From positions 52,384 through 116,383 of the forward strand of contig NW_019218225.1 of assembly GCF_002571385.2 (NCBI RefSeq): a stretch of DNA of 64,000 nt, given 5' to 3'. Origin of the DNA: Stylophora pistillata. Lineage: Eukaryota. The notes below the pieces were generated by a model that did no database searches, had not been told where the DNA came from, and saw nothing but the letters and a program-made list of their open reading frames with translations. This document shows, piece by piece, positions 2,233-38,193 of the stretch; within the stretch, counting starts at the first letter, position 1; each line of letters begins with the position of its first letter. The translations under genes were made by a program, and so were the position numbers.

Positions 2233-2813
2233 TTTCCGTATTTCACTGATGAAATAATCTTATTCGCACTCGTAAGTTGGTCATAAACCAAAGACAGACA
2301 ATTGTACACAACTGAAAGGCTCGTAATATTTGATTTATGATTCCGGGAAAAAGCGGAAATATGTCACGTGGTATGGTTTTGATTAGCAAAAGTAGGTCAA
2401 ATAAACAACCCGCGACCTTTCAGTTTCTGAGAAAATTATTTGCATAATTACTACTGGTCTGTCGATGATTAAGCAGAAATATTTCCACTCACCGAATTGT
2501 AACTTGCTAATCATTGGGAATTTTGATATTCACCAACATTGATTCACGATGACTAGACTCTGTAGCGGTTAAAGCACTCGATCACAACAGATGTTTGCCT
2601 AGTTGACAAAATTTATGAAGAGACATGACGTCATCTTTCCGAGAAAGAGTAAAAATACACGGCAAAGAGATTTGAACTTTCGGTTTCCGGGAATTAAGCA
2701 AAAGAAAGATTTCACCAAGCTGATGCCGCATTCTTTTCACTGATTTTGAGGTATTAGTCTAAATATACACATTTTTGAAGAAATCGAAACACGACTCACA
2801 ATCAGGATCTAGT
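2233..2813. promoter_or_regulatory. Putative bidirectional promoter A with STAT/GAS, ETS, IRF and CRE motifs
   Basis: GAS TTCN3GAA at 2341, 2425, 2637 and 2685. ETS-like GCGGAAAT plus TGTCACGTG at 2353-2370. CRE TGACGTCA at 2626. ISRE-like ACTTTCGGTTTC at 2676-2687 overlaps the last GAS. GAAATCGAAAC at 2780. Confidence 0.6.
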
Positions 2814-10559: not shown

Positions 10560-10961
10560 TGAAACCGGAAGTTGGAAGTAATTCGAATAAGTTCTCATAC
10601 CTCTTAGAAACGTGCTTGCATGATGTGAAGTAAACAGCATACGGGAAACTTTCGTTACCAATCAATGAAGAGTGACGACTGTTATTTTCACTTGGGCTCA
10701 AATGCTTTTCTGAGAAATCGGGGAAACTTACGTCAACTTGACCCTAAACTGCATTAGCCAATAAGAGACGTTTTTCAATTTTAAGATCAAGGTTTCTCTT
10801 TCTGAGAAACAGCTCCCTGTCGTAGGGAAATTTCCTTTAGCAAGCTTAACACTTTCTGTTGAAAGGGATATTTTCAAAGATTTTCGTTCAGATTACGAAA
10901 GAGGCGACAAAAACGTTTTATACGCACAGCGACTTTGAGAACGAAGAGTGAAGCAACCTAG
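10560..10961 (+). promoter_or_regulatory. Putative promoter of HSPA12 copy 2 with ETS, GAS, ISRE and NF-kB motifs
   Basis: ACCGGAAGT at 10564. TTCTGAGAA at 10708 and 10800. GGTTTCTCTTTC at 10791-10802 overlaps the second GAS. TTACGTCA at 10728. GGGAAATTTCC at 10825-10835. Confidence 0.55.
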
Positions 10962-13900
10962 ATGGCATACAAAGGTAACGTTTTAGGTACGTAACAATGA
11001 AGATTTATGTTACTCATTCAGTTTGATCTCTCGCCTTTCCGCTTGTGTTCGAGGAGAGCCAAAATTCTTGGTCCTAAATCAAGTAAATAGAGTGCCTCAA
11101 CTCTAGTTATGATCTCAACAGTACAAAGAAACCGGCAATGGTCTTAATGTTTAAGACTAACTAAATTTCTTAGTTAACAATTATTCCCGAAGTGGAGGTG
11201 TATAGTGATGGATATTTACCGTGCCGCGAAGCGGCGAGGTAAATATCCACCACTTTCGCCGACACTGAGGTGAGTAATTGTTTTAGTATGTACCACACAG
11301 TGACCAAAAAATTTGTTTGTTTCCATCAACATTCCAAAATATGGCCAGAAATTAAATTTTCAACGTGCGATTTTGTCTCTTCGGCTACTCGGAAGTAAAG
11401 TACTTGCAAAGTACTTCCGAAGAGGCCAATCAGCACGTGGAAAAAAGCATTATTCACCCGTGTGGTATATTACAAATCACAAATCGACACTGGTTTACCG
11501 TTGTCCGTGCTTTGCCGTGGCCATCATCGAGGCCAACTTGTTGTAAACTCACGAGGCGCAGTCGTGTGAGTCCGCAACAAATTTTGACCATAGTGATGAC
11601 GAATATTGTTGTCAATAAGACTACAGACCACGCTACACCATTGTCGATTTGCTTTTTACCACAACGTTGACGTTAAAGTTCCGAAAAATTTCCGAGTCAT
11701 CCATGTTTGGAGCTGATAAAGGAATTGCGTGACACGCTGATTCGAGCAGCGTTGTCTGTACTATTGCCGACGACGGAAAATTGACCAATCAGACTGCGAC
11801 ATATCTGCCAGTTGTGGTAAAAATACTAATAAAGGATATGTTAGGAGAAACACAGAACACCTTAAAAGTCTTTTTCTAGCTCGTGCAACATTTTTAATGA
11901 AGAACTTCCTTTTGCGAAAGGAAGATACCAAATGAAATGGCGGGCAATAGAGGTGTTTGTGCAGTAAATGGTTTGAACCCGGGGGTAACATGTGAAGGTG
12001 TAGTCTGATCGTCCGGGTGAGTGTAGTCCTGAGAAGGACTGTTGTCGGTGGTAGTGACTGACGTTTCGACAACCTGTGCGGAAGTCATCATCAGAGTCAA
12101 GTGAATGATTGTTGTCAGTAGAATGTTCTTATTCCAGTTCGTGTGAAATGATCGGTTGGTTTTGCCGTGATGTTATTGGCTGTAAGACTCAAGTGACGTA
12201 AGTCGGTCGTGATTGGTCTGTTTCGATCTGTCGGTAAAGTTAGGTCGTTCTTTTTCGGTCGTTTGTGATGTTTATGTCGTGAATGAGTCGTTTGTATGGA
12301 GCGGGTAGTTGTTGACATCTGTTTAGGGGAGTCTGTTCTAAGTTAGTAAACCAGCTTTCCAGAGTCAGTCGTTGAAAATAGTCAGTGCTGTAGGTTAGGC
12401 ATTGCGCAGAGTCCCAGTCAATGTTGTGGTTGGTAAGTCGATGGTGTTCAGCAATGTGATTGCTGACATCACCTTTCCTCGTCGCCCGTCTGTGTTCAGT
12501 CAGTCTTGTTGTGAGGTTTCTGCCAGTCTCACCGATGTAGGAGGCTTGGCAGTCGGAACAATTGATCTTATAAATCGTTCCCTGTCTGTTCCTCGGTTCG
12601 TCTTTGTCTTTAACGTTGGTTAGTAACTGACGTAGTGTGGTGATGGGTTTGTGGGCGACGCCAATAACATCACGGCAAAACCAACCGATCATTTCACACG
12701 AACTGGAATAAGAACATTCTACTGACAACAATCATTCACTTGACTCTGATAATGACTTCCGCACAGGTTGTCGAAACGTCAGTCACTACCACCGACAACA
12801 GTCCTTCTCAGGACTACACTCACCCGGACGATCAGACTACACCTTCACAGAGGTGTTTGTGCGTCTAATCACTTTTCATGTTTCGGTTTACCTTCTCAGC
12901 GAGCTCATTTCATTACATGCTTGTTTCGTGAATTTCGTAATTATGGCGATCAACCAAGAAGCAACTGTGGATTGTGCAATGTAGATTTTAAGTAATGTGT
13001 ACCGCTAGGTTACTGACTTGGTTAAAAATTCAAGCGTCCGGGGTCATAATTTTTGCACATTTAAAGACAATCTCAAAAGAGTCTTTGGCAGTATTTAATG
13101 TATAGATATGCACTGAGTATCGTAATTCGATTAACTCGTAATTCGATGTTTCTTAAGCCTAAAGAGATATGTATTTTGTTTATCTATCACAGCACTTGAA
13201 GGCTCGCTTCTCTATTCTCCGAAGCGTTCGTATCTGGCAGTTGTTGCCATTGACTTCGGGACAACCTATAGTGGATTTGCCTTTTCATTTATCAAAGACC
13301 AAGGAAAGGACGCCATTTTCATGAATATGGACTGGGGTAATGAACAAGGCGCTCAAACAAGCAAAACACCAACATGCCTGCTACTCAAACCAGACTTGGA
13401 GTTTGACTCCTTTGGTTATGAAGCAATAGAGAAGTATTCCAGTCTTGGAGATGAGAGCGAAGAGAAAGAGTATCTATTTTTTAAACATTTCAAAATGGCC
13501 CTTCACAGTGACGAGGTCAGTGATTTAACTTCGTGTCAAACTATGTGAATCGCATAATTTGGAAGGCGAAATTTTCCAGAACACTCTGAACCTTTCGTCT
13601 TTGCGTCTGAAGCCTTTAAAGCTGATAAAACTAAGATGAACTGTATATGATTATTAGCATACATTTCTTCCTCTGCACCCAGTTTCTAAAGACTGTAGAT
13701 TGAAAGCCAAACCTGTTAGCCCACGTTTTGGGTAAGTTTTTCTTAAAAGATCACCACTCTCAAAGTGGGCAAATATTAATTCCAACCTCGATGCAGATCT
13801 TTCATTCAATTCACAGTTCCTATCTTGTCATCTTACATCTCAGATTACTTAAAACTGCGGATTATTTTTTAATTTTTGAATATTGCAATTGTTCTCCACG

Positions 13901-16900
13901 ATGATCATTAACACCTAACAATCAAGAACTTTAATATTTATTGTTGGATAGTTGTTTGTCATGATCTATAATTAACTCGAATGGCCGGCAAACATGTTGC
14001 ACAGACTAAGGTCTAATGCTATTTTATAAAAGACCTGTAGAAACGTGCTTTACTTGAATACTCATGCTTGTTTTCAGACTTTGAATAGCAGGACTGTCAT
14101 AAGGGCAGCCAATGGACGATCCGTCGAAGCCAAGACAGTGTTTGCACGTTCCATTAACTTCCTTAAAGATGAAGCTGTTAAAGTAATTCGTCAGAGAACC
14201 GGAGATAACCATTTCAACGCAGATGAAATCCAATGGGTCCTGACTGTACCTGCCATATGGACCCCGAGAGCAAAGCAGTTTATGCGGGAGGCAGCCTATG
14301 AGGTAATTTTCGATTCTTGCACGCCCATTTCTTTATAGGTCGTTCTGACCAAATGAGCCTGCCATCTGCATCCTTATAATTGCCGAAGAAAATATCCAAT
14401 ATATTATCTGATTTCATGAAGTTGGTCATGAATCATAATAATGATCCTCAATTCAAGGCATTCCTTCAAATTAATTGTTTTTATCCACTGAGTTAATAAC
14501 GAAAATTTGCCATCGTAAAGAGTTTTTAAGCTGATCTTCCGAGAGTTAGCCTTTAGTAAGCTGATAAATGCAAATTATTTTTTCTCGAAAAGTGAGAGGG
14601 CGGTATTCTACAAATCCTTCAACTTAATTGGTTCCGAGAGTGGGCTTCGTTATAAACTAAATGTTTTTGTTTTCCCGGCTGGGCAGGAATAATAAGTCGA
14701 TAAAGAACTTATCTAAAATTGAATTCGAAATGAGTTTTGTTACACCAAATGTGTTTGTTAGGGACCTTAAGCAGTCAGGGCAGCACCGCCGAGGAAGCCG
14801 TCGAATGAAAAATGTATTGATAATTTAGGAGCGTGTCCACGAGAAAACCAGGCAGGGACCGATAACCTCAAATCACCGATTTGGCTCAAACTTGGCGAAA
14901 ATGCTAAGTATTATGAGTTAACGAATGTGTGAAAATAACAGGTCAAAATATCTAATTCTCTGGGACTAAGGTCCCCCTGAGAAAGCCCCCATTTCCTGCA
15001 TTTTTTGCATAATTAATTAGCTAACTTTGCATTGCTGCTATGACAAACAGAAAATTCGTCTACAAATTCAATGAACTGGGTTGTGTTCTATATCTATCAG
15101 ACTTCACTGAAGAAAATTGAATTGTTTTAAATTTTTCATTTCATTTCTTCCCTTACCTCTCGTAAAGACGTTAGAAAAGACGACTTTTTCTAGTTTTGAC
15201 AAAGTCCAACATAAGGGTATTTTAAGGCCCAATATCTCCGATGACCAACTACTTCTGATCATTATTCCTATATGGGTAGTGAAAGCCATCACTGGACTTT
15301 CAAAATCAGAAATAAAATGTTGGGGCAATTGATTTCATAACCCGTCCTGACGTGAAATTTACATCTACCTTCCGCTTTTTTACTGGTCTGTATCATCAAA
15401 ATTCCGTAAACCACATCTTTGTTTCATTAACTTAAAATAACTTGTAATTTACGAGAAATTTCCCAGAGAGTATCGTTTAAACATGAACGAGGAGAGAATC
15501 TTTGAATAGCGCAAGCTGAGCCCTTTTTGAGAACTTTTTTTCGCAGCCATATTTGGATTATTCAATATGCAAGTGATTTCTATATACGTGTCAGGTTCTC
15601 AACCATTTTCTTTTTCCTTGCGCTGAGAGGAGACCAATATATCAACGGCTTATTTGTTTTTCGGTGAACCAGCAACTATTTCAAGCTTAACAAATAACAA
15701 GTCAAACATTTTGGTAGCCGTAAATCTTTGATACATTTTAAACTTTGTAGACTACAAACACAACACGCCAAATAAATGTCAAAGTTGATCACTGAACAAA
15801 ATTGTAGGCGCGATCTGATCAAAGATGGCGGATTGTCCTTTTGATTTACATCAGCTTTTAGGACATCAAATTATCTTTTCGCCACCAACACATATCATGT
15901 AAGTCGATAAGTATCACGCCGTAAAAGACCAATAATTTTTATCAGTCTTTCCGAGAGCTCTCCCCTTGTTCAATATTTCAACAGGGCAACGATGCAAATT
16001 GAATCTGGTGATTGTTGACATAATGGCTACTTATCTAACAAATGATATCAAGCCAAAACTTGAAACTGAGGCACCACAGACATGTATGTACTACCAAGTT
16101 TCTTCCTAGATTTCTTTTGTCAGAAAGTTCAACTACATGCGTCGTTGATGTTCATCATCAACTGCTGCGTCTTCTTAAGAATAATCCAAATATGGCTGCG
16201 AAAAAAAGTTCTCAAAAAGGGCTCAGCTTGCGCTATTCAAAGATTCTCTCCTCGTTCATGTTTAAACGATGACTCTCTGGGAAATTTCTCGTAAATTTCA
16301 AGTTAGTTTAAGTTAATAAAACAAATATGTGGTTCACGGAATTTTGATGATACAGACCAGTAAAAAGCAGAAGGTAGATGTAAATTTCACGTCAGGACGG
16401 GTTATGAAATCAATTGCCCCAACATTTTATTTCTGATTTTGAAAGTCCAGTGATGGCTTTCACTACCCATATAGGAATAATGATCAGAAGTAGTTGGTCA
16501 TCGGAGATATTGGGCCTTAAAATACCCTTATTTTGGACTTTGTCAAAACCAGAAAAAGTCGTCTTTACTTAAGTCTTTACGAGAGGCTAGGGAAGAAATG
16601 AAATGAAAAATTTAAAACAATTCAATTTTCTTCAGGGAAGTCTGATGCATATAGAACACAACCCAGTTCATTGAATTTGCAGAGGGATTTTCTGTTTGTC
16701 ACAGCAGCAATGCAAAGTTAGCTAATTGATTATGCAAAAAATGCAGAAAATGGAGGTTTTCCCAGGGGGACCCTATATCTCCCAGGGAATTAAATATTTT
16801 GACCTATTATTTTCAAAAATTTGTCAACTCAAGATACTTAGCAATTGTGCCAGGTTTGAGCCAAATCGGTGATTTGAGGTTTATCACCCCTGCCCGTTTC

Positions 16901-19900
16901 TGCCCAGTTTTTCTCGTGGACACGCTCTTAAGACAGAATTTCGCGTATGACGCCACACCTCAATTTTAGCATAGTACAGGTGAGCTGCGCTTACTTCCAA
17001 AAGGAAACTGGAATAATTTACTTGAACGATAAGTTCAGGGAAGAAGGAAAAGTCATGGTGATAGTTATTTAACTCTGGTTTACTCGACGAACCAGAGCTG
17101 TTGTTTTTTTCTGTTTGTTTCTTTCTTTAGAAGTGTACGCGTGCTTCTTTTTTTTTCTTACGCGCTGGTGTCAGATCAGTGCAGACACTAAGAAAAAAAA
17201 TGTTTCAAATTTCGCTCGAAAGTCTTTTCAGTCACCCTTAAAAAACGTTTTGATGAAGCCTCTATTTAATTTGCATTACCGCTGTTTCTCTACCATCAAC
17301 TCGGTCAGAAAATGTCCCGTATATGGAGGATCTTCCCGAAATTACAGCCCTAAATCATTTGGGTTCTTTTGGAAAGCATTTCGTCAAGTCTTAAGTCTTG
17401 AGAGCCGGCATCCAAGACCTCGGGCGCAGTTTTTCCCAATACGGACCTCCCGCCGGGTGAATAACATCCGTATTTATTTTAAGTTGAGGCCGCGGTGATT
17501 GTGGACTGGACGAATGGAACTTTGGACCGTTGGACTGTTTTCGGTCTGGTTTTTTGACCATTCTCTGAACCAGTTTTCCCCTTATAATACACCTTTAACT
17601 ACACGAATATCATCCGACGCTTCTTGTCGGAAGAGGTTAAGATATTGCACCTTTTTCCATGTTTATATCTTTTCTTTTGTTACTTTAAAAGGCTGGTGTT
17701 GGGAAACCAGAAAATGCTGATCAATTAATTATTGCTTTGGAACCAGAAGCAGCGGCAATTTTCTGCATGGAGAAAAATATGAGTGATTTTCTAGAAGAAT
17801 CTGGCTGCAGATCTGTTGATGGAGTGCTATCCAAAATCAACACACATTACATTGTTGCTGATATTGGAGGCGAGTTGAAGAATTAATCCTGTAAGAGTTT
17901 GACTTAGTTGCTAATAAAAAAATCGTTTGCCAAGTTCTGCCCGAAACCAAACGCTTAGCTTTTTAATTTCCCTTTAAAAGAGATGCATTTTGTTGAGATA
18001 AGATCATTTCTTTTCGAAACTCCAGCTCTCTCGATTTCTGAAAGCGAAAATACTTTTAACTTGACCGGCCTCGTGAAGATGTACAAACATGTAGCTCAAA
18101 ACGTTTATAGTGAGAAGGGTGATATTGTGTAATCTGGGCACGCATCAATAAAATTTGCGACCAAGGTCGCTAGACTCCATAAGACGTGAAAAAATATAAT
18201 GGCTTTCCGTACAATTCAAGGTCGCTCTTCTTGTGACAACAGAAAATCAAATTTCACACCATTTTTTATTTCAAAATAAATCTGTTAAGCTTATTTTGGA
18301 TTAGGTTCGTCTTGAGGGGAATCGAAGGATGACTTCTCAAATATCTTGTTTTGCTGTTGAAATCTATTACGTGGTCCTTAATGATCCTAAAGGGGGGTTA
18401 AATACGTACCCTTGATTAAAAAAAAGCTACACAGAGAGCTTTTAAAGTCACAAATACAAGTTGCACCTCTGTTCAACAACCCATTACTTCATCTGTTGGA
18501 AGAGCGGCGAAACAACATGAAATAGTATTAGCTTTGCCTTGCGATTCGTTTGGATCAACATATTATTTCTTAGGGAAAGTGATTCAACCGAGAACTATGT
18601 TAAGGAGAAAGAAAAATTGACTGCTTAGGGATAAAGATTCGATCACTCAGATTTTCATAGACCAGGTAATTACTCCTATTTTGAATACACAGGCCAAGCA
18701 ACAAGTGAAGTGAACAAAGGTGGTCTTTGTTTAGGTTGATTCTGATAGTTATTATCTTTGTTTCTCATGGCACCCAAAAAAATCTAAAATAGCAAGGTGC
18801 AAAGAATAAAAACAAAATCTTGAAATTATAAGGATTAAAAACCAAAATTTAAGAACCTTATGGTGGTGGTAGTAACAGTCGTAGTTTTACTTCTAATGGT
18901 AGTGAGAATAGAAGAGTAAAGAGAAGAAGGGGAGCAACTGTAAAAGATTTAAAAATAGGATTAATCATAATCATAGTTGATTCTTGCTTATTTTATTTTT
19001 CAGGAGGGACACTTGATGTAACAGTGCATGAGATTCAAGATGACGGTAGAATTAGGGAGATCTACAAAGTCACCGGAGGTCCTCACGGTGGAATGTATGT
19101 AAACCAGAAGTTTGAAAGTCTATTGGACGAGTTGTTTGGTACCCCAATGCTTCAAAGCTATAGAGAGCAATTTCCATCTGATTGGCTCTGCTTGATAAAT
19201 GAGTTCGAAGGGAAAAAACGAGGAAAACGTGTACTTGACAGCAGCTTGATGACAAATATTCGATTACCGAGAAGCTTCGTATCGCAGATTAAACGAAACA
19301 GAGGGACAGGAATCGACCGCTATGGAGAGAGAGAAGTCAAGATAAAAAGTAACGAATATCTTTCCCTAAGCTCTGGGATGATGAGGAAATTATTCACCCC
19401 TGTTGTGGACAAAATCAAGGAACATTTGAATAACCTGTTGCAAAAGCCAGAGCTATCAAAAGTACAAATAATGCTCCTTGTTGGCGGCTTTGCTGAGTCG
19501 GCATTCCTCCAAGAGGAAATAAGAAAGGAGTTTTCCGGAAGGAACAGAATCCTCGTCCCCCACCACGCCAGCATTGCAGTTGCCCAGGGCGCCGTAATCT
19601 TTGGCAAGAAGCCTACCACAATAACCGAGAGGGTTATGGGTACTACGTATGGCATTCGTTGCTTAGGTGACTTTGAATCGGGCGTGCATCCGGAAGAGAA
19701 GAAAACAATCAGAGACGGCATTTTTAAGTGCAGAGATTTATTTAGCTGCTTTGTTAAAGAAAATGAAGTTGTAGAACTTGGACAGCGAATCAAAAAAATC
19801 TATCACCCTTCTAAATCCACCTCAACAAGGGTCACCGTTGCCTTTCACGTGACGACTAATCCAAATACTCAGTTTACCACAGATCCTGAGGTAACTAAGA

Positions 19901-20061
19901 TTGGGAACATCAGTATTCAGACCCCTGACACCTGGAAAGGCAGAGACCGAGATATTGAAGTTTGCATGTATTTTGGTGGAACAGAAATAACTGCCACAGC
20001 CTGGGACGTATCCAGTGGGAATAATGCACAAACTAACCTGGACTTTTTCAGTCGATCATAG
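10962..20061 (+). CDS. HSPA12: Heat shock 70 kDa protein 12-like, copy 2, ~598 aa
   Basis: Exons 10962-10974, 13193-13515, 14078-14302, 17692-17869 and 19004-20061. Intron positions and phases match copy 1, and intron 4 has a GC donor. Motifs VAIDFGTTYSG, TVPAIW, LEPEAAA, DIGGGTLD and GGFAES. Confidence 0.92.
11177..11823. repeat. Composite hairpin-headed interspersed repeats
   Basis: Hairpin around TGGATATTTACC-GTGCCGCGAAGCGGCGA-GGTAAATATCCA (11209-11250). A second hairpin, ACTCACGA..TCGTGTGAGT (~11547-11570), follows. A degenerate copy of the first unit lies at ~51895-52190. Confidence 0.55.
11963..12848 (-). mobile_element. 5'-truncated Penelope-like element with GIY-YIG endonuclease fragment and inverted pseudo-LTRs
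   Basis: 14-bp TSD AGAGGTGTTTGTGC at 11949-11962 and 12849-12862. The ORF contains GTIYKINCSDCQASYIGETGRNLTTRLTEH...LESWF. A ~189-bp near-perfect inverted repeat spans 11992-12180 and 12660-12848. Confidence 0.92.
12052..12100 (-). ncRNA. Minimal type I hammerhead ribozyme in Penelope pseudo-LTR
   Basis: The minus strand reads TGACT-CTGATGA-TGACTTCCGCACAGGTTGTC-GAAAC-GTC-AGTCA. This gives an intact CUGANGA/GAAA core, stem I TGACT/AGTCA and a GUC cleavage triplet. Confidence 0.65.
14829..16927. mobile_element. Non-autonomous long-TIR DNA transposon, Sola3-like
   Basis: GAG...CTC termini, TTAG/TTAA flanks and ~730-bp highly similar TIRs (14829-~15562 versus ~16179-16927). Located in intron 3 of HSPA12 copy 2. 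Confidence 0.8.
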
Positions 20062-25841: not shown

Positions 25842-28800
25842 TTATAGCAACAACACTTCCCCTTTCCTGATAACTTTTCCATCGCAGTCTAACAAAGTAG
25901 GCCACAAATAGCACTTGATTTTGCGTGACCCTGAGTACAGTGCTCGACGAGAAGGGCTCCTTTCTTCGGAGGGACTAAACGCTTGACTCACTTCGTGGAC
26001 TTTTGGGTCATAGTCAGTGGTCTTGTAGTCAATTCTCAGAGGAGGAACCTGTGTAATAGTACACCATGCAAACTGCGTGCAATATTTAATATAGCCATTC
26101 AGTCTATACAAGAGATCCAAGTCGAATTCAAGGAGAAAAGATCCCCTTTGCAACTGATGACGAGTCCATTTTTCAGAAATAGATCTTTTCACGTCCTGCA
26201 AATGAACGGAACGAACAAACATGATTATATTTTTGTGGGGAGCTTAAAGAGGTTTAAGAAGGGACTTACCGACAAGTTAATGACTACGAGAAAATCACTA
26301 GTTAATCACTACAAGAAAAAAATTAATGACCTAACTAAAATTAAACTAAAACGTTTATGGATGACAAAGCAAAATCAATCCAGAATTTCCACTTTTTAAA
26401 TATTCACTTTCGACGGTATTTGTTAAGACAGTAAACAATCATTAGTCTGTTTTCAACTTGTTTCTTAATTTGTTGTGAATTTGATATGATTTTATCAGTC
26501 ATAACAAATAACTGGAAAATTGCAAAGAAAAGGTAGAAGGGTATTCAGATACTGTTGAGCTTAAAGAACCAATTAAGAACAAATAAAGAGCATTGAATCT
26601 ACCTGAACAAGTGAATTCAAATCGTGTGTCTTCGCTCTTTCTTTGACGAGAATCATCAACTCATTGATCACATCCTGAGTGGCATGCACATCGCCTTTTG
26701 GATTGTTATACAGCGTGTTCCAAAGCTAGCCAATGAAATATGAATATCTGTCACCGATGTAAGTGTAAGTTTCCCTCCACCAATACAATTACTAGCGGAG
26801 GGCAAAAAAACTGCCCTTCAGTGGTTTGAAAACGCTTCCTGCTCGATATTGGCCAAGTTGCGATAGACGAAATATCCATCTTCTTTATTTCGTACGCAAG
26901 TGGAGTGCTTTCCACTCAAAGGGAATACAAACTCTAACCTCCTTCAGAACTAAGCACTACTTTATTCAAATAACCAGGATTTTCACGGTTATCATACTCC
27001 TCGGATGTTGGGAAGGGACACACGAAGGGTGTGTCAAGAATAGACCACATTGCCTCCACCATCTCTACTCCGAAGTTGTCGCAAACTTGTATGGAAGCCT
27101 CAAAATCCACTAAGTAAACAGACTTGGTTGTCCTATCGATCTAGGTTAAAAAAGCCCACTTCGATAAAAAAAAAAGCAACTTGAAATTCCTTTATAAGTC
27201 CATCACTACAAAAATTAATGACTAACAAACCGTACTTTGCTTTGGAACGATGTCGTATCTGACCCCAACGCAGGAGCCTCAGCGGCCAATGTTTCCATTA
27301 CACTGGATGTGAATTTGACGAAGGACTCTTTCACCCTGAGAACAACTTCAAAGGCTACCTAGATCCGGAGAGGAAGACATATTTATTAGAAACTTTCTGA
27401 ATACTGTTTCACGTTTTACTAAGTTTGGTGAGCAATGTTAAAGACAAAATTGGCATTTAGCAAGAATTTTCATTAAATGTGTTGTTAAACTTATTTAAAT
27501 GTAAAGAACATAAGTGGAAATAATATATTACTACAAGCTATTCAGCACAAAAATTATAATAAACAAAGTTGCGGTTGTGAATTTGACATGAAAGCAGATG
27601 TTCAGTTTATCGGTTATCTCCTGGTTAGCTATGTCAAATCCACGATCAAGAAAATACTTCTAACTATTTTAATAAAAGACTTTGATAGTAAATTTTATTT
27701 TAGCACGTTCAGCATCTCTTTCTTTAAGGTGACCTTAAGTGTAAACAACTTGTACTTTTCATCTTCCGTACTGAATTTATAATCAATTGACTCGTGTTAA
27801 CAACACGTAGTTTTTTCTGGGGGTGGTACTTGTGTAAGCCCCTTCTTCCTTGAATCCGCTGTTTATTCAGTTGTTATGTAACAAACTTCAAGGGCTACTC
27901 TCGTTTTAGTTATCTTTTTAAGTGCTATTCTGATCTACGCAATGGCTTCTTCATAATTTTAATATTGCCAATCTTGTTTTCGTTTTACCATAACTAAACT
28001 GGAAATGTAAGAAATTTAAGGTAGAAAATGATTTTGTAATTGCGTAAATGACTCGAAGGTACATACCTAGTATGCATGAGCTATTTCACGCAACTTAACG
28101 TGATTCGCTAGTTAAGATAGAAACGATGACGATGCATGAAAATTGGCAGCTTAGTAAGTGTCACCTTTATAACTTGGTGAACAAAAATTTTCACTCAGAG
28201 TTGAGCTAGTCCCGATAGTAGTAAATTGTATTAAGGTTACCGTGCACCTTCAGGGGTGTCTCGCGTGCAAGCGATGTAGCGCGTCCGGTTTAAACTGTAG
28301 ATATCTAAACTCTTATATCAAATTAAAGCTTATAGGATTGGCTATCAGACTATACAAAAAATTGTGAAAAAAATGAATTGTCGAAATTTTCACGACTTCT
28401 AAATGCGAGCGCCCAAATTACCTTTTGAACGTTACGTGTCAAAGCGAATTTTGTTTTTCGCTTATTTAATGTGTTCCTCCGTTTCCGGGGCCAAAGCGAT
28501 AATTAGCGATAACGTATTAAATTTCAGTGAAAAGTTACGGAACATTTTTCAAATAGGATTAAAAAAATGTGGAGTGATCGTACAAAAATCGCTCTTGAAA
28601 AAAAAGTATTTAGAAATAAAAAATTCGGAGACACTCTTTTGTTGTTTAAATGTAAAACTAGCTACTGTCAAAATTTGAGAGCAATCGAACAAATTCCGTT
28701 TGACTTGTTGCCCTTAAAAGGTGATTCGGGCGCTCGCATTTAGAAGTAGTGAAAACTTCGACAATTAATTTTTTTTAAACTTTTTGGTATGGTCAGTTCT

Positions 28801-31800
28801 ATAAGCTTTAATTTGATATAGGAGTTTAGATATCTACAGTTTAAACCGGACGCGCTACATCGCTTGCACGCGAGACACCCCTGAAGGTGCACGGTAACCT
28901 TAAAAGATCAAAGCAAGGAATAAAGAAGTATCAACTGTACAACAACTCTACAAGAGTGTCACATAATACCTCTAACTGCAACTCTAGGCTCACCGTGAAG
29001 AGTTTCTAAAGCTGAACTAGTTTCGAGCGCACGAAACGTCCGCTTCAGAAACGACTCTTTAATATGACCAATTTGCATCATCAAATCAGTTTATAAAAGC
29101 AAATTATCTTTTTATACTCCCACCAACACAGCACCACAGTTTCTTTAGAAACTCACACCGTTTATGCCAAGCTAAGCCTCGTTGATCCTTCACTCTATAC
29201 GCTTGAATTTTCACTCTTTGAATTAGATTTACACATAATTCAAGCACCCCGTGGGACACAGATGAAGGGCTGTACCTCGAATATGAAGCAGGCCGATCTA
29301 CAGCACTTTACATACTCCAGTGAGGTGTTGTTACTCCCCCTCCGACGTCCAGATTTGCTTGTCATGACGTCTATTGCATCAACACGTGTGCCGTCCTTAA
29401 AATCGATGACGTAATCGCTCTCCAGCTGAGACTGTCTGTTGGTACTCAACGTATTTTCAGTTCTTCTCTGATCAGACCTAACTCTTCTTTCCGAGACAGC
29501 TGCATGTCTATGAACGATAAGCAATATTTTTGAATGGGTGAATAAATTGCTCTAGCTTTAACAACAATCATTTTATTTTATTTTATTTTATTTTATTTAG
29601 CTTTGCCAACCGGCAGGGAAACCGCAACAGCTTGCGCCGATTACTGCGGGCCCAATAAACACACCCATCCCACCCCAGGGGAGGACATCCATCACACAGT
29701 AATCTCGAGTGTGGGAAATTAACGTCTCCTGCCCTTAACCCTGCAGGAGACGGGACCTCCATTTATTCGTCCCTATCCGAGAAGACTAGAATATCTAACC
29801 ATTTCTTGATGTTATAGAAAGGTAGCAAATTCTTCTCAATTATTTTAAGACCCTGAGTGTTGGTCCGGCTGGGGCTCGAACCCTCGACCTCCCGCACAAC
29901 AGTCCAGCGCTCTATCCATTGAGCTAACCGGGAGGCGGTCCAAATGCAGAATTGCAAAATCAAATGCAAAACAAAACAAATGACAACTTGGTCGTCTGGC
30001 TGATGGTTATTTGCTTTGAGGTTTCTTGGAACATCCTCTTTGAAGTAAAATATGATTTACCTTTTACAATGCTTTGATTACCTTTCACAGATTGCGCTTA
30101 TATTATCCGTCATTTACAAGTGGACCTTGTTTAATGGGATTCTTTGCTCGATTGAGACAATGACAAAATATTCAAGATAGCATAAACAGCTTTTACCAAT
30201 ACCTTTCTTTAAATCTGTCGAGCTCTCGGCGATATCCTTCGGAGACTTGTCTCGCTTTCATTATTTGTTGCTCATAATTAACCCTTTCATAAAAAATAAA
30301 CATGAAACAGTGTAAAACGTAACTTTTTAAAAAAACCAAGATCTATCCCGTCATTGCAAAACGCTCAATCGAGTTACCTTCTGTGGCAAAACCTTTCTTT
30401 CCCACCTTATGTACTTCTGTATTTCTTAAGCAACGCGAGAACAAAACAGTTGACGGCCACTCATGTAATGAAGCAGCACGCAGGCCTCACAAGCAACTTT
30501 GGAATCCAACAGGTGTTAGCGGCCTTAACCACAAACTTTATCTCCCTAACCTCCTCTTTTGTTTTTTATCCAATGAAGTCTGATACCCAACTACCACAGC
30601 TGGGTAAATCCTTTTTTCATAATTAAAGTAAACACTCACCTCTGAGAGTCTCTGGAATATCTGTGACTGACACTGCTTCTCTCCTGTAGAAGGTGCTCAT
30701 ATTCTTTCAATTTTTTCCTCAAATCCTGGTTCTCCTTTGAGCTACGAAATAGTGATCGTAAGGATTGCATGAGGCTAACAATATTATGTTAAAAAGAGTT
30801 TCCTGAAGAAAAATATCTAATTTCCGTTAAGTTTGCCGTCAAGTTTTCCGTCATTGGTAATCCTAAACGAAAAAAAGCAATGACCTATAAGGAAACGTCG
30901 GGTATTTTAAGCTTCGCGATAACTTCTTTATGTGTATATGTAACAGTAGAAAGCATAACTTAGTTTGAGAGTATTCTCGTTTCACATGTTGGTCACGGTA
31001 AATATACTGGTCTGTCTTCTTGTATTCTTAAATCTCTGAAACGAAGTCATTGCTAAATGGATGAAACTTCATTAGTCTTATAAGCATTAGCATAAGTTTC
31101 TAACAGCTACTATTTATTTTAAAATGATAACAATTTCAAGAGAAGAAAACAACAAACGATGAACACTCGAGATGCATTACCTTTGATTGAGGTTCTTATT
31201 CAACTCATTGTTGTTTTTCTGAAGAGTTTCCGTGTTAGCCTGAAGTTGCTGCTGAAATTTTTTCTGTTCTTCTAAAAACCTATTGCATTGGTAAACAACA
31301 GGGTTAACAATTAGCAGTAACTTAATATACTGAGCTGCATGCACGATCTCTGGTTGAACGGGTTTTGAATTTAGTGACATTATCAATGACATTGATAATG
31401 AAAACACTCTCCTAGATAGTGTGTGCATGTATTTTAAATTCATTTGTGTTTTACAATGCTTTTAAAATACCTTTCTTTGTATTTTCTACTGAGCTGTCGT
31501 TTCTCGGCTTCCAGTTGGTCTTTAAACCATTTCTCACTAATGGTTGCCTGGCTAGGCGAATTTACCCTGAGAAATAAAAGTAAGAATTTTCCATTTCATA
31601 ATCTAAAACTTACCAGGCATGTTGCGAGGATGTTGTATTCACAGCCCCAATTACAAGAACCTGATTTCAAACTCTTGAGTAATTTAATTGCCCCGTAAAC
31701 GCTGCTGTTTTCCTTTTTTTGCACATCTGGCCCCTGTTGTTCCAAGGTTGGATAACGCTTTCCACTGAACAAATCTCTAACCGTTGGATAGCGCAGTACG

Positions 31801-32293
31801 TTTTGTTGACAGTTATTCGCTGTTTAGTGACTCATCCGTTGGATAGCGTTATCCGCCCTTCAGGTACCTTCACTTAAATCCCAGCAAATGACAGGAAACG
31901 GTGGAATTTCGTTTGTTTGCTTACGGAGTCTACTCGTGCAAGATCAACGTTGTTCAGTCGAAAGTGTCCTGTGTTTTATCACGGTTCTATCCAAGTTATG
32001 AGTATAAGTAAAAAATTGCTTCCAATTCAGACCCTGCATCGGCCAAAGGGAGGTATAAGACGATAAACAGAGGGTATTTATTATACTGTTTACCTTGAAC
32101 GCGACGCTTCATTCGCTTCCTTCTTTAGTCTCTCGTTCTCACTTTGGAGTCGTCTGAGCTCCTCAGGAAGCTTTATTAAATTCTGGATGAACTCTTGGTT
32201 GGTAGCGAGTGGTTCCACTTCATTCGTGAACTCCGGTGATTCTCTCTGAGTTCCATACCATGCACTTGTCGGCCATCTGCTCCGTCCGGCCAT
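25842..32293 (-). CDS. Coiled-coil plus MIEAP/SPATA18-like domain protein, ~469 aa, with GrpE-like C-terminus
   Basis: Exons 32293-32094, 31566-31471, 31279-31181, 30741-30640, 30283-30203, 29507-29276, 27358-27236, 26725-26603 and 26195-25842. All are GT-AG and sum to a 1410-nt open frame. MIEAP-type motifs are ENTLSTNRQSQLESDY...RVDA, YIKYCTQFAWCTITQVPPL, YDPKVH, YLWPTL and GKVIRKGEV. Confidence 0.85.
28235..28899. mobile_element. Non-autonomous DNA transposon (MITE), Kolobok-like
   Basis: TTAA TSD at 28231 and 28900, GG...CC termini, and TIRs of ~180 bp whose outer ~78 bp are perfect. Confidence 0.85.
29010..29160 (+). repeat. Hammerhead/Penelope-related short repeat family, degenerate copy
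   Basis: Ends in CCCACC.AC.CAGCACCACAGTTTCTTTAGAAACT, shared with 41287-41330 and 58884-58925. Confidence 0.6.
29571..29940 (-). mobile_element. tRNA-derived SINE
   Basis: The minus strand begins GACCGCCTCCCGGTTAGCTCAATGG...GGTTCGAGCCCC (A and B boxes), continues through a body, and ends in a (TAAAA)n tail at 29571-29598. Confidence 0.75.
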
Positions 32294-32735
32294 GTTATCA
32301 TTCCAGGAGTACAAATTTAACGAGATGTTCCTAGAAAAAAGTTGCTTCCGCTCTTGCTATTTCCTTTCGCGGAAAACCGGAAGTTGTCACGCTTGTAAAT
32401 GACACAATCTCTAAGTTTTTATTCAAGTTTGCCTTGTTGAAAGGTCGAGTTCAGTGAGCATGAAAATGAAGTTTGTGAGAAAAAACTACAAAGAGAGAGA
32501 GAAAGAAAAAACTTTAAAATGTAAACAATCAAACTATGTTCACCAATATCTCAATTGGATAACCCCCTATTGTTTAGAAAAACACGATTCCTCTTTTGAC
32601 CCTCTATAGGTCAGTTTGATTTCCGGGAAATTTCCCCTCGATTTTGACGAAATAACATTGAATTGGTGCGATCGCACACAATTTGCTTTCGCGTTCAAAG
32701 TAGAAGTCTTTATTCAAGGGAGATATCGGAACGCC
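32294..32735. promoter_or_regulatory. Putative bidirectional promoter B with STAT/GAS, ETS and NF-kB motifs
   Basis: TTCCTAGAA at 32328. TTCGCGGAA at 32366, then ACCGGAAGT at 32376 and TGTCACG at 32385. TTCCGGGAA at 32621 overlaps the perfect palindrome GGGAAATTTCCC at 32625-32636. Confidence 0.62.
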
Positions 32736-35700
32736 ATGGCCTTATCTCTGACAGGTAACTTAAACTTCAGTATTCACTGACCGTTTGGTCAGTTTGGGGT
32801 TTTGGTGACATAGCAACAAGACATAACTCACTGTGCTTATACTTAATTGGATGCAACGACTGATGTCCACTCGCGATGGTTCAGAATATACAAAATAATG
32901 TTCTTAAGACCATTGGTTATAAAGCCACTGATCTCGCAATAATTACTGACAGTGATCGACGAAAACTATCGATTGATTGTAAAGCTGACATGCATTACGA
33001 TACGTAGGCGAACTTATTCTCGCCTTGCAATTTTGTCACAAGCTCGGTGTCAACAGTCACAGCATTCAGCTACTTTCGCTTTGTTATAGATACGGCTGTA
33101 GAAGAAAACAGCCTCTAAAGCAGATTTAAAAAACCAATTGCGAGATTATGTACTTACCTACCTTTGATAAAAAAAAAAGGTAGTCTTAATCAATCATATT
33201 TAATTTCCGTCGGGCAAGTTTGCGGCCGTGTTATCATCAAACAATTTGTAACATAATAACGATCAGATCTGAAAGTGCGCATGCCCAATGCAGGTTCCAG
33301 TGGTACTTGCCTAATATCTTGATTTCCTAAGTCTCATCTCAAGCTACAAAGAACTAAGCTTTATAATCATTTATAATTTGCATCTTATCTTCTCTGTGTT
33401 TTTGTGAAAAGACAGACCGAAAAATTAGGATGCAATATACTTTCTTTTGCTTGATTTTGGGTTCAGAGACTTTTGTGCGTTTCGCTAACGACCAGCCGTG
33501 CATGTCATAAAATATTTTATAAATGGTAATGTTACAAAAAAAAAAGGCAAGAGCCTTGGTACAAAAGAGGACTCAGCACAAGCCAAATAAAAGGATAACG
33601 AGAGATTTCAGGCCGGGCTAAATCATAAAACGAAGCACTTATCCAAAAATATAAAGTCATACTGAGATTATAGATATACTTTTTTTAAGAGATTTACATA
33701 CATACGTTTATTGTTACTCCCAACTTCGGCTTTTCGGTTACAACTGATGTCTTACTACAATATTTATGATTCGTATAAGTTAAAAAGGAGAGATTTACAA
33801 GCATCTGAAGCGTCATCTTTACATATTTCACTGAAGAACTCCAAATTATTTATGAAGGAGAGTGATAATAGAAAACAAATCGGTGATGGAATAAGGTGTA
33901 CAAGCATCCCAAATTCCAATGCGTCCTACTCACAATGCGGACTCGGATAATCGCTTACTAACCAGTAATTAATTCTGAACTGGGAAGGTAGCAGGTCTAA
34001 AATTGCTTTCCGATAGGGGATATGGAAAGTACATGGTAGTCGGCGACACTTGTATGCCTAGGAAAAAACGTCCGTCAATTTTTTTAATCTATTTAGATTA
34101 TATGCGGAATAGAGTAGCCTATACTCAAACTCCAAAGCAGGGTAATGAAATATTGACTTAATTTGTCATGAGATCATTCTGTTTTGAACTTGTTGCAAAC
34201 ATTCCCAGCAATTTGTGAGACAAAGACATCTGAATCCGATAATCTGAGAGTTTTAGCGACGTTTTTCCATCATTTATCAATTTAAAAGAGGAATCTAGAA
34301 AAGGATCAATAATACTTTAATACTTTGTTAGATTTCCTATTGAAGCTTTCAGAATTTAATTAAAATATAAGAAAATATATGAAAAGAATAAAAAGTTAAA
34401 GTCGTATTATAATGCATAGGATGATTATATTTAAAAACTTAATTAGTGCTGCTAAAAATATTCCTTAAAACTAGTTTAAAACTTAGAAAAGAGTCATTAC
34501 ATCTAACGCTCACGGGCAGATTGTTCCACACTGTAAGTGCTCTACACCGGAAATTGCGCTGACCTGCAGATAAGCAGTAGTTCGGATAACAACAAAATCT
34601 GACTGAGTAAAGAAGGAAAGCTCATATGGCATCTTGTCATATCCTCTGTTCAAGCAAAAGGGGACTTTTCCGTGTTCAGACAGTTTCATCTAAACATTTA
34701 AGAATCTGAGTTGAAAGAATTCGAGACAATTATACAAACCTGAGAACTCAACTGTGTCACCATACCCCCATATAAACACATCTCACGACCAATGAGAGCG
34801 GAGAGCATAGTGTTGAATGGGAATTGACAAAAAGTGATGATAGTGGTTGCCTATAGCTTAGACTAACTTTACCAACCTCCTCTTAAACCAAACCGCTAGA
34901 GACAGTAATCTCTCAGTTTAATTAAAGGGTTTTTTTTAAAAAGAACAATTTGATCCCAGTTACTTAGACCCTTAGAATTTATTTGAGGAATCTTATTTTT
35001 TATTTCAATTTTTTTCAAACAGATATTGGCCACTCACTCCTACATCTTGAAAAGTCCTTCCTTGCTACGGTGGCAATAGACTTTGGCACAACCTACAGCG
35101 GGTTTGCCTTCTCATTCAACAAAGACGATGGTGAAGATGCGATTTTTATGAACAGAGACTGGGAAAATGAACAGGGGCACCGAACTAGTAAGACCCCTAC
35201 ATGTCTGCTTCTTAAACCAGATTTGTCATTTGACTCGTTTGGTTACAAAGCTGAAGAAAAGTACGCAAATCTGAATAACCTATCTGAGGAAAAGGAATAC
35301 ATGTTTTTTCGGCATTTTAAAATGCTTCTACACAATGATGAGGTAGGAGTCATATGATTCGTATAGATTATACGAATCATATATGTTTAATCATTTCATT
35401 TCATCTACGATCCTTGATTTGTTTTCCTGTTCTTTTTCATTACTAATGTCATTATCTCCATTGTTATGATTGTCATCGTCGTCATTATCATCGCCAGCGT
35501 CATCGTTAGTATCGTCATCATTGTTATTTTTATGAGGAAAATTCAAGGAGTTGATTAGGGCACATCCCATGCTCTGGGCCTTGCACCCTCTGTCCAATCC
35601 AATTAAATGCTTCTCGTCGAGTCTCAGCAGACAAAGCCACCGCAGGAGTTATAAGTTTTCGAGCATCACCGAATGGTTTAATTAGTTTTTAAATCCTGTT

Positions 35701-38193
35701 GTGGTTTTCATTACAGCCCAGATAAATAACAGGATGACCTGTAGAAATAAGGATCATCATAATCATCATTATCAAGTTGTTTACCTCCATCTTTACCAAT
35801 ATCATTAGTTTGTTTTAACATTTGCGCCTCTTTGAGAGTTTTACAGCATGGAACATTGCGCATTTAATTTGAAAATAACAAAGCCCCATAGATATAATTT
35901 ACCAAAACCAATATTTGAAAAAATATTGGAAACACAACATTTAAAAAAATAGGTTGAGGGGTCAAGAGAGTTAACTTGTTTGACCGAAAAATTCTGGCGG
36001 AGTTCTGTAACAATAGTCGAGTAATCAATACAGCTGCATTTAGCATGAGGCATTTCAAAGAAGTTTAGACTCGACTTAGTGATATATTTTATGGATAAAT
36101 GTAAATGAACGCACTCGCGCTATTTTTTTTATCTTACGTTGTCTCCCTTTGTCAAATTAGAGCCTGAATCTTAACACCAAGATAGCTGCTGCAAACGGAA
36201 AACTCTTTCATGCGAAACAAGTGTTTGCTCATTCTATCCGGTTTCTGAAAGAACAAGCGCTCAACATCATTCGGCAAGAGACAAGAGATGATGGATATAA
36301 AATGGGGGATATCCAGTGGGTTCTGACCGTACCAGCCATATGGACTCCGAGGGCGAAGCAGTTTATGCGTCAAGCAGCCTATGAAGTGAGCAATATAATG
36401 AGATTTCATATCTGTTTTCTTGGCGAGTGAAGAATTGGGTACGAATTTTCGATTGTGTTGAATTTGTCCGGCTGTCATCATTTCAAGGACGAATGATTAG
36501 TCTGTGTCACTTACTTTTTTATAGGCTGGCCTTGGGTCATCTGAAAATCCAGAGCAGTTGATAATCGCTTTAGAACCTGAAGCTGCGGCACTGTTCTGCA
36601 CAGAAAAATACCTGGAGAGGATGGGGGTTGTGTCGTTTGAAGGGCAGCTCTCCCAGCCCAATGTACACTATATGGTTGTCGACATTGGAGGTGAGACTTT
36701 CTCTGAACAAGGATTTTTATATTCTGCGTCATAATTAATATTCCTGAGAAACCTTTTTAAATTAATTGTTTCGTCGAGTTAAAGAAATGCAGAAGTACTT
36801 CTAAGAGCTAAGAACATCAATGGGTGGAATAACTTACAAGAAGTAGCCCCTTGGCTAGATAAATATTCCCAGCGACACTGCCTCTTCGCAAAAAAAGAAA
36901 TACTTTTATACTGAGCAAGGAGTAGTTTCACAAACGAGCCATCAGTTTCACCTTGAAAGATTATCTGAACTGCAGGGAAACGGGACTTTGCGTCTTAAAG
37001 TCGACAAGATTATAATTACAAGAAAAGTGAAATCTGCTCATGGTTGTGGCATCAAATTTTACTATATCTCTTTTAAGGTAATAAATCCTATTCAATAAAG
37101 ATTTAGATGTATTCCGTAAAACTCTTAACTCCTTTTAGGTGGTACTCTTGATGTGACAGCGCATGAAAAACAAATTGATGGTACCATCAAGGAGATCTAC
37201 AAAGTAACGGGTGGACCTTATGGGGGCGTGAAGGTGAATGAGCAGTTTAAGAGCCTTTTGGACCAAATATTTGGTCAGCAGAAAATGTATGATTATCGCC
37301 AACAATTCCCTTCTGATTGGCTAAAGCTCATGAGCGATTTTGAAATAAAGAAGCGCGGAGTCCGGGTCGTTCAGCAGAAAGAGACAAGAATCCGCCTGCC
37401 ACGCAGTTTTGTCTCCTGGGTCAATGACGCTGTTACAGTGGCTCTAAAACGCTATGCAAATGGTGAAATCAGAATCCTCAACAATGAGTACCTTTGCTTG
37501 AGTTCTAGAGTTATGGTGAGGCAGTTTCAGCCAGTGTTGGAAGCCATGAAGGATCACTTAAGGTTGCTCCTCACCGAGCCACGGCTTTCGAAAGTCTCTG
37601 TGATGCTACTAGTTGGAGGATTCGCGAATTCTCTGATCCTGCAGGATGAAATCACGACAGAGTTTTCCAGAAGGTGTAGTGTAGTCATTCCTAATGATAC
37701 CAGTGCGGCTGTTGTCCAAGGTGCTGTCTTATTTGGCAAGAATCCAGGCAGAATAATCCAGAGAGTCGTCTGCAAGACGTACGGAGCAGACTGCTGCCGA
37801 GAGTTTGTCCGCGACGTTCACCCAGATGGAAAGAAGTTTGTCGCAAATGGCGTGGAGATGTGTAGTGATTTGCTCAACTGCTTTGTCAAGGAAAATGAAG
37901 TCGTTAGACTTGGACAACAAGTAAAAAGTATCTATCGACCATTGTATCCAGACGAAAAGCTGGTCAAATACTCCTTCTACGCTGCAGACAACCCCAATGC
38001 CCTTCTCGTCACCGAAGCTGGAGTAAAAAGGATTGGAAGCGTTGTGGTTGAGTCTCCTGAGACGTGGAGAGGTTTGGAGAGAGAACTGGAAGTCAGTCTG
38101 TATTTTGGAGGAACAGAAATAACCGCAACAGCTCGAGACATTTCTAGTGGCAACACGGCGCAAACTACTCTAGACTTTTTTCACACCAAGTAA
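32736..38193 (+). CDS. HSPA12: Heat shock 70 kDa protein 12-like, copy 3, ~594 aa
   Basis: Exons 32736-32754 (Kozak GCCATGG), 35023-35342, 36161-36385, 36525-36690 and 37139-38193. Intron positions and motifs match copies 1 and 2. Confidence 0.92.
34400..34590 (-). mobile_element. LINE (L2/CR1-like) 3' remnant
   Basis: The minus strand encodes AGQRNFRCRALTVWNNLP, the typical LINE ORF2 C-terminal WNxLP motif. Confidence 0.55.
35440..35530. repeat. Degenerate (TCA/TCG/TTA)n trinucleotide repeat
   Basis: Run of tcattatc/tcatcgtcgtca triplets in intron 2 of copy 3. Confidence 0.6.

Follow-up and report, generated by a model that had tools for sequence, protein, structure and literature searches.

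Within a 64,000-nt stretch of Stylophora pistillata DNA (contig NW_019218225.1, assembly GCF_002571385.2; hereafter the window, whose positions serve as coordinates), two divergently transcribed genes flank a short region that we call spacer B (32294..32735). Spacer B is exactly the gap between the ATG of a Mieap-domain gene (32293, minus strand) and that of an HSPA12-like gene (32736, plus strand). Both genes are spliced and their stranded reads run in opposite directions, which makes this a head-to-head pair by the usual definition of two genes within about 1 kb. The Mieap-domain gene (25842..32293, minus) has nine coding exons and encodes a 469-aa protein (P0001) with an N-terminal coiled coil and a predicted GrpE-like domain (approximately residues 160-469). 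A sequence-only reading of this region had left this partner unnamed; we assign it (LOC111340218) to the Mieap family and predict a GrpE-like fold for its product, its last exon matching PF16026 at 40.5 bits (cut-off 27, E 3.8e-10), a family also matched at E<=1 by 61 of 81 aligned relatives. The HSPA12-like gene (32736..38193, plus; 594 aa, P0007, XP_022802754.1) begins with a micro-exon. It carries Hsp70-type ATPase motifs, matches PF00012 in part and has HSPA12 proteins as its closest named relatives (its source name is HSPA12A-like), and it is classed here as an HSPA12-like Hsp70 with predicted ATPase activity.

Spacer B carries a motif group on each side, with names (gamma-activated site, GAS; ETS; cAMP response element, CRE; kB) that we presume from consensus sequences. 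On the Mieap side, TTCGCGGAAAACCGGAAGTTGTCACG (32366..32391, plus) comprises the GAS-like TTCGCGGAA (32366-74), the ETS core CCGGAAGT (32377-84) and TGTCACG (32385-91). This GAS deviates from TTCYNRGAA, the form used by most copies. A second GAS, TTCCTAGAA (32328..32336), lies near the Mieap ATG and had not been listed before. On the HSPA12 side, a string match places the GAS TTCCGGGAA at 32621..32629, overlapping a 12-bp kB-like palindrome, GGGAAATTTCCC, at 32625..32636 (the spacers and these last three sites carry no strand). In the whole window TTCCGGGAA is found at 32621, at 2685 and once more at 2341. Spacer A (2233..2813), the promoter of a second cassette, contains a GAS-ETS-TGTCACG module (TTCCGGGAAAAAGCGGAAATATGTCACG, 2341-2368), a CRE-like element with a GAS (2626-2645) and a GAS at 2685-2693; no kB-like site was found within the 300 nt scanned before either of its ATGs. 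The sequence-only reading had given the strings and places of both modules and of the palindrome correctly. The module is 73-98 nt (B) and 109-136 nt (A) away from the Mieap ATG, and the GAS precedes the HSPA12 ATG by 115 nt in B and by 129 nt in A. The remaining spacer sequence is unalignable between A and B, as that reading had stated (global-score z -0.6 and -1.3). In a 12 Mb second-order Markov simulation, the chance of GAS-ETS was 0.002 per 450-bp spacer and that of the 12-mer GGGAAATTTCCC was 4e-5 per spacer, while GAS-ETS-TGTCACG did not occur at all.

The pairing of these two families recurs across the genome. For 19 matches to HSPA12 exon 2 we looked for Mieap exons upstream on the opposite strand, and 11 of the loci were head-to-head with Mieap. 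Both first exons could be placed in eight of the 11 cassettes, with divergent ATGs 341-869 bp apart; in cassettes A and c5 long introns separate the first exon from the Mieap body, and the link between the two is probable. The other eight loci were solo, tandem, next to broken Mieap exons or partnerless in the DNA examined. A further 80 metagenome loci were collected with the exon-2 alignment, and gene structure and divergence suggest that their hosts are other corals. Mieap matches were present at nine of these (two identical), all upstream and on the minus strand, in a set where only 42 of the 80 had at least 1 kb of upstream sequence. Over ten head-to-head cassettes, pairwise similarities of HSPA12 and Mieap were correlated (Mantel rho 0.69, p 0.0002). 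The HSPA12 and Mieap trees both group B, c6 and c1, and both C1951 with C117, and conflict within A, c3 and c5; the exon-2 tree is a quick tree of 99 columns, used for grouping only. The region G000:C408:285822-288680 is a tandem duplicated promoter with copies c6 and c6b. In copy c6 the Mieap exon and the GAS are kept, the kB site is broken and HSPA12 exon 1 has a GC donor. In copy c6b the kB site is kept, that GAS is lost and a stop interrupts the Mieap exon, which is similar to the Pocillopora protein P0006. At the expected place of exon 1 of cassette c3 lies an internal HSPA12 exon fragment (G000:C408:116350-116540), a local rearrangement.

Motifs are enriched upstream of HSPA12 relatives. 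The fair test was a motif-blind count in upstream versus downstream sequence at all 80 metagenome loci. The 12-mer GGGAAATTTCCC was found nine times upstream and never downstream, GGGAAWTTTCCC 20 times against none, the GAS form TTCYNRGAA 76 times against eight (control 14 against 11) and GAS-ETS 20 times against one, with flat controls. The signal was restricted to 63 loci (L048-L110), and the 17 outgroup loci (L111-L127) showed no motif enrichment in this count. A second set comprised 32 HSPA12 and 19 Mieap starts placed by eye, of which 27 and 15 served as hold-out; its p-values are inflated, as some metagenome loci had been chosen for motif matches and relatives are not independent. Among hold-out promoters, and against a background of 3264 tiles, GAS-ETS lay within 250 nt of the ATG in 7 of 15 Mieap promoters, always oriented as in B (background 0.6%). 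GAS preceded the ATG in 21 of 27 HSPA12 promoters (4.8%), and the exact 12-mer GGGAAATTTCCC did so in 10 of 27 (0.4%). In another clade, GAS is often paired with a CRE-like element instead. An identical copy of the 20-mer that contains the overlapping GAS and kB sites is present in paralog c1 (C408:74426), where the rest of the spacer is unalignable; spacers B, c6 and c6b show plain homology (z 5.9-30).

That the sites are under selection and that the cassettes share an origin had both been proposed from the sequence, and both proposals are supported: the motifs recur with comparable spacing and orientation in paralogs, as well as in metagenome loci whose spacers cannot be aligned to B, and HSPA12 and Mieap co-vary. 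We regard selection on the motif sites as close to certain. The three-part GAS-ETS-TGTCACG module, proposed at the same time as conserved, did not generalize: TGTCACG was tried as a family-wide third element and rejected, being present in 0 of 15 hold-out partner promoters, with the looser GAS-ETS-TGTCA in 1 of 15.

The palindrome GGGAAATTTCCC is a predicted medium-strength site for cnidarian NF-kB. The canonical NF-kB consensus is the 10-bp GGGRNWYYCC. A canonical site of this kind was sought in B and is absent among the 10-bp matches, and only 1 of 32 HSPA12 promoters (1 of 27 hold-out) has one. In a published binding array (PMC5700166), on which the full 12-mer GGGAAATTTCCC is not represented, the contained 10-mer GAAATTTCCC scored z 8.6/8.1 with Nematostella and 5.8 with Aiptasia NF-kB, compared with 1.7/2.2 and 0.4 for GGAAATTTCC and 12.7/11.4 and 12.0 for GGGAATTCCC. 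The earlier description of a perfect NF-kB palindrome thus holds as to the 12-bp palindrome, which is perfect, and overstates the NF-kB part, the site being non-canonical and of medium strength by array. Genome-wide, the 12-mer family had 278 occurrences against 58 for the reversed control (4.8-fold). It is a feature of the HSPA12 family, present at partnerless paralogs too and missing from A. A GGGAATTTTCCC site was also seen at G000:C125:516227, about 2.9 kb upstream of a Rel-domain exon (C125:513287, minus), and NF-kB autoregulation through it is possible.

Contig ends point to a start of HSPA12-B within the spacer and of at least one Mieap-B transcript beyond it. HSPA12-B contigs had 5′ ends at 32637, the furthest 5′ and directly past the palindrome (which stops one base short of it), and at 32686. 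Between 32508 and 32631, RNA coverage was zero in four of four runs. The sole Mieap-B contig extended from exon 1 across the module as far as 32487 and was then joined near 33161, pointing to a 5′ untranslated region (UTR) intron in one isoform (32486..33157, minus; GT..AG with a pyrimidine tract; joint 32487-33161 in one contig from one run). On reading the window at this joint we found a pyrimidine-tract acceptor and a GTAAGT donor. The intron covers the HSPA12-side motifs and HSPA12 exon 1. The upstream non-coding exon, represented at its 3′ end by a 20-nt loose contig end with one letter unlike the window (33158..33180, minus), lies in HSPA12-B intron 1. One Mieap-B isoform therefore appears to start inside HSPA12 intron 1, outside the spacer, and to transcribe the module, which is inside the 5′ UTR of at least one Mieap-B transcript. 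The sequence-only reading had supposed that both starts map inside the spacer, which agrees with the HSPA12-B ends and not with the Mieap-B upstream exon at or beyond 33158. With such an isoform beginning in HSPA12 intron 1, the region is more than a promoter with two simple starts; two accessions share the Mieap-B protein, so a second, proximal start is allowed for. RNA depth is too low for start-site mapping and contigs cannot show starts, the HSPA12 start region deriving from two runs and the upstream Mieap exon from one. The module was also covered by three reads from paralog c6. Interspersed repeats occupy Mieap introns (29586-30056, 28230-28930 and 1-240), and RNA depth was very high at 29443-30296.

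Mieap-B is GrpE-like by predicted fold, whereas its sequence does not place it in the GrpE family. The predicted Mieap domain aligned with GrpE over 141 of 151 GrpE residues. Among 62 Pfam families matched by 81 Mieap members, the 25 shown did not include GrpE, a PDB sequence search with the Mieap alignment returned no GrpE among matches at E<=10, and Foldseek against PDB returned nothing at E<=0.001. A single-sequence fold of P0130 had a predicted confidence (pLDDT) of 42.5 and was not used. The modelled complex of Mieap domain and HSPA12, built from one partner chain without alignments, was a weak pass at 0.49 versus 0.02, and passes in this score band are frequently false. Clusters of fungal, actinobacterial and plant proteins (the last GIL1/IRKI C-terminal, PF24994) are similar to the Mieap-like domain (TM 0.70-0.74), so the fold family may extend widely. 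In bacteria, all five loci examined (L188-L192, GTDB metagenome-assembled genomes) have an HSPA12-like and a Mieap-like gene as a two-gene arrangement, and these loci lack coral-type promoters; the coral Mieap profile at default filters missed the bacterial partners. A dynamin-family GTPase (E 3e-9) follows the pair in L188, and a related gene of 670-680 aa and no known function precedes it in L188 and L190. PADLOC gave weak or coiled-coil matches only. A literature search, outside whose reach most subscription papers lie, found nothing tying HSPA12 to Mieap or calling Mieap GrpE-like. Mieap may already be grouped with GrpE in fold databases.

The GAS-ETS composite also occurs at other genes. 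A genome pattern tuned on the cassettes gave 68 matches versus 39 for the control, which is not a clean ratio, owing to the approximately 17 of 39 control matches that look like one repeat family. Among 61 matches outside the cassettes, 47 had a pyrimidine (C or T) at the free fourth base of GAS (p 4e-5). We scanned open reading frames (ORFs) in 8 kb around 42 of the 47 pyrimidine matches (at 40 loci, taken in contig order) and around 20 non-redundant control loci, at most five ORFs each and 246 in total. Nine GAS-ETS loci had RING-TRIM (two with PARP matches), Mab-21, RNA-dependent RNA polymerase (RdRP) or HEPN domains; controls had none of these, and TRIM-NHL, TRAF and SRCR once each (p 0.02 to 0.37). 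The starts of five TRIM genes, paralogs of one another, lay 39-57 nt from GAS-ETS in the Mieap orientation; these RING-B-box genes are at L137, L138 (by sequence likeness), L143, L144 and L166, with PARP matches at L144 and L166. ATG-starting ORFs around the genome-wide matches showed no overall enrichment over control. A wider immune regulon including TRIM, cGAS-like receptor (cGLR) and RdRP loci is suggested. A STAT-linker match is present in the genome; a PF02864 search for STAT gave no match and was uninformative. At L157:2799-5131 GAS-ETS separates a candidate head-to-head pair of ORFs, of which one has a JAB-domain match (PF14464), and L141 has two GAS-ETS matches (G000:C126:89269 and 90597) near GIY-YIG domain ORFs (PF19239).

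Two more HSPA12-like genes lie in the window. Gene A (2814..8667, plus) has 44% identity to gene B in the last exon, and the first exon of its partner (2032..2232, minus) belongs to an annotated coiled-coil protein of 178 aa (P0127). Outside the window, about 11 kb past the last exon of partner A, there is a Mieap body, and no alternative first exon was found between them; partner A is probably a Mieap-domain gene, presumably linked to that body across long introns. The middle gene (10700..20061, plus; ATG 10962) has GAS at 10708 and 10800 and GGGAAATTTCC at 10825 in its promoter, and a search for a Mieap partner found none. Its intron 1 contains a GIY-YIG ORF (12243-12731, minus; E 3e-4, below cut-off) bordered by repeated sequence, which we take to be probably a Penelope-like retroelement remnant. 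Locus L094 combines a promoter and exon 1 of the middle-gene type with an exon 2 that clusters with a different clade, reflecting either chimeric assembly or exon shuffling. A tRNA-like unit of the short interspersed element (SINE) type lies near 60-140, with tandem arrays of the same unit at C441:43616-44407 and C408:116700-117900.

On balance we consider it probable that spacer B is a conserved regulatory region of a head-to-head HSPA12-like/Mieap pair, through which STAT, ETS and NF-kB would co-induce a chaperone and its predicted GrpE-like partner in immunity. This reading builds on the motifs, their upstream enrichment, the repeated pairing, co-divergence, opposite-strand spliced transcription and bacterial adjacency. 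Immune signalling would activate STAT and NF-kB, and both transcripts would be raised through GAS with ETS on the Mieap side and GAS with kB on the HSPA12 side. The Mieap domain would then bind the HSPA12 ATPase domain and act on its cycle, releasing ADP as GrpE does on DnaK. Control of the motifs by immune factors is the likelier component, and physical partnership of HSPA12 and Mieap stands only a little better than even. The motifs might be of the immune type and functional with the genes merely co-regulated neighbours, the GrpE-like fold of Mieap serving elsewhere, for example at membranes or mitochondria, where vertebrate Mieap is described as acting. The weak band of the complex score would fit this, as would the same GAS and kB grammar at solo HSPA12 paralogs and, in Oculina, a neuronal SPATA18-named marker. 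We nevertheless think it unlikely, as the pair is adjacent in all five bacterial loci without these promoters, the families co-diverge in coral, and a GrpE-like fold beside an Hsp70 would be an improbable coincidence.

Alternatively, the chaperone unit might be genuine and answer to other readers or signals, such as heat, wounding or symbiosis, a non-STAT reader of TTCN3GAA, an ETS core-promoter element or an NFAT-like reading of GGAAA. Our factor names derive from vertebrate consensus sequences, and the kB site is sub-optimal and located at the apparent start region. STAT knockdown in Nematostella is reported to have left cyclic GMP-AMP (cGAMP) genes unaffected, and NF-kB also rises with heat in S. 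pistillata (PMC13042239). The fourth-base pyrimidine bias and the TRIM, cGLR and RdRP neighbours argue for immune factors instead, as do studies in which Nematostella poly(I:C) genes were enriched for STAT, ETS and NF-kB motifs (PMC8476169) and a pathogen-associated molecular pattern induced an HSP12-type gene in Acropora, and we rate this possibility as rather improbable. Far less credible is that the motifs are neutral relics of duplication or gene conversion, or RNA-level elements of the Mieap 5′ UTR. The plain homology of spacers B, c6 and c6b, the transcription of the module in some Mieap RNA and the loss of one of the overlapping GAS and kB sites in each of c6 and c6b are compatible with it. 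However, the motifs are kept where flanks are unalignable and across samples, the same GAS on the HSPA12 side lies outside spliced-RNA coverage, the 12-mer is enriched genome-wide, and the motif-blind count has already largely refuted it.

The co-induced chaperone pair that we favor resembles several known systems in part. As in DnaK-GrpE and mortalin-GrpEL1 (PDB 1dkg, 4ani, 9bls), an Hsp70-type ATPase stands beside a long-helix protein with a predicted small C-terminal beta domain, and the linkage of the bacterial genes fits that comparison. Unlike GrpE, Mieap has no GrpE sequence match, has inserted helices and a longer coiled coil, and its exchange activity is a prediction; the coral Hsp70 is of the HSPA12 type, with many paralogous pairs and immune-type promoter motifs. 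The likeness to vertebrate HSPA12A/B and SPATA18 is one of family labels only. The vertebrate genes are few and unlinked, which sets the coral pairs apart, and vertebrate Mieap is described in mitochondrial quality control. HSP60 and HSP10 share a bidirectional promoter as a head-to-head pair, and the coral cassettes are similar in the spacing of their ATGs, in joining a chaperone to a predicted co-chaperone and in the ETS motif; they differ in that one Mieap isoform starts past HSPA12 exon 1, so that the 5′ ends overlap, and in having a module on each side. Immune-induced promoters such as those of the Nematostella poly(I:C) genes have the same motif classes near starts, whereas the coral promoters, known from sequence, combine a fixed GAS-ETS composite with a kB form of 12 bp instead of the canonical 10-mer.

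More broadly, Mieap/SPATA18 domains might be divergent GrpE-like exchange factors for HSPA12-type Hsp70s, operonic in bacteria and expanded in corals as head-to-head cassettes within a STAT-ETS/NF-kB regulon with TRIM, cGLR and RdRP genes, a proposal that we advance tentatively and hold somewhat short of even. The promoter grammar provides sequence-level candidate targets of STAT and NF-kB in a reef coral, with the 68 genome-wide GAS-ETS matches as a short candidate list. Both HSPA12 and Mieap are expanded in corals, and to our knowledge neither human HSPA12 nor human Mieap has an agreed biochemical partner. The linkage from bacteria to corals, together with the predicted GrpE-like fold, yields the directly testable idea that Mieap acts in nucleotide exchange on HSPA12; if true, both orphan families would gain the partner that they lack, perhaps human HSPA12A/B and SPATA18 among them.
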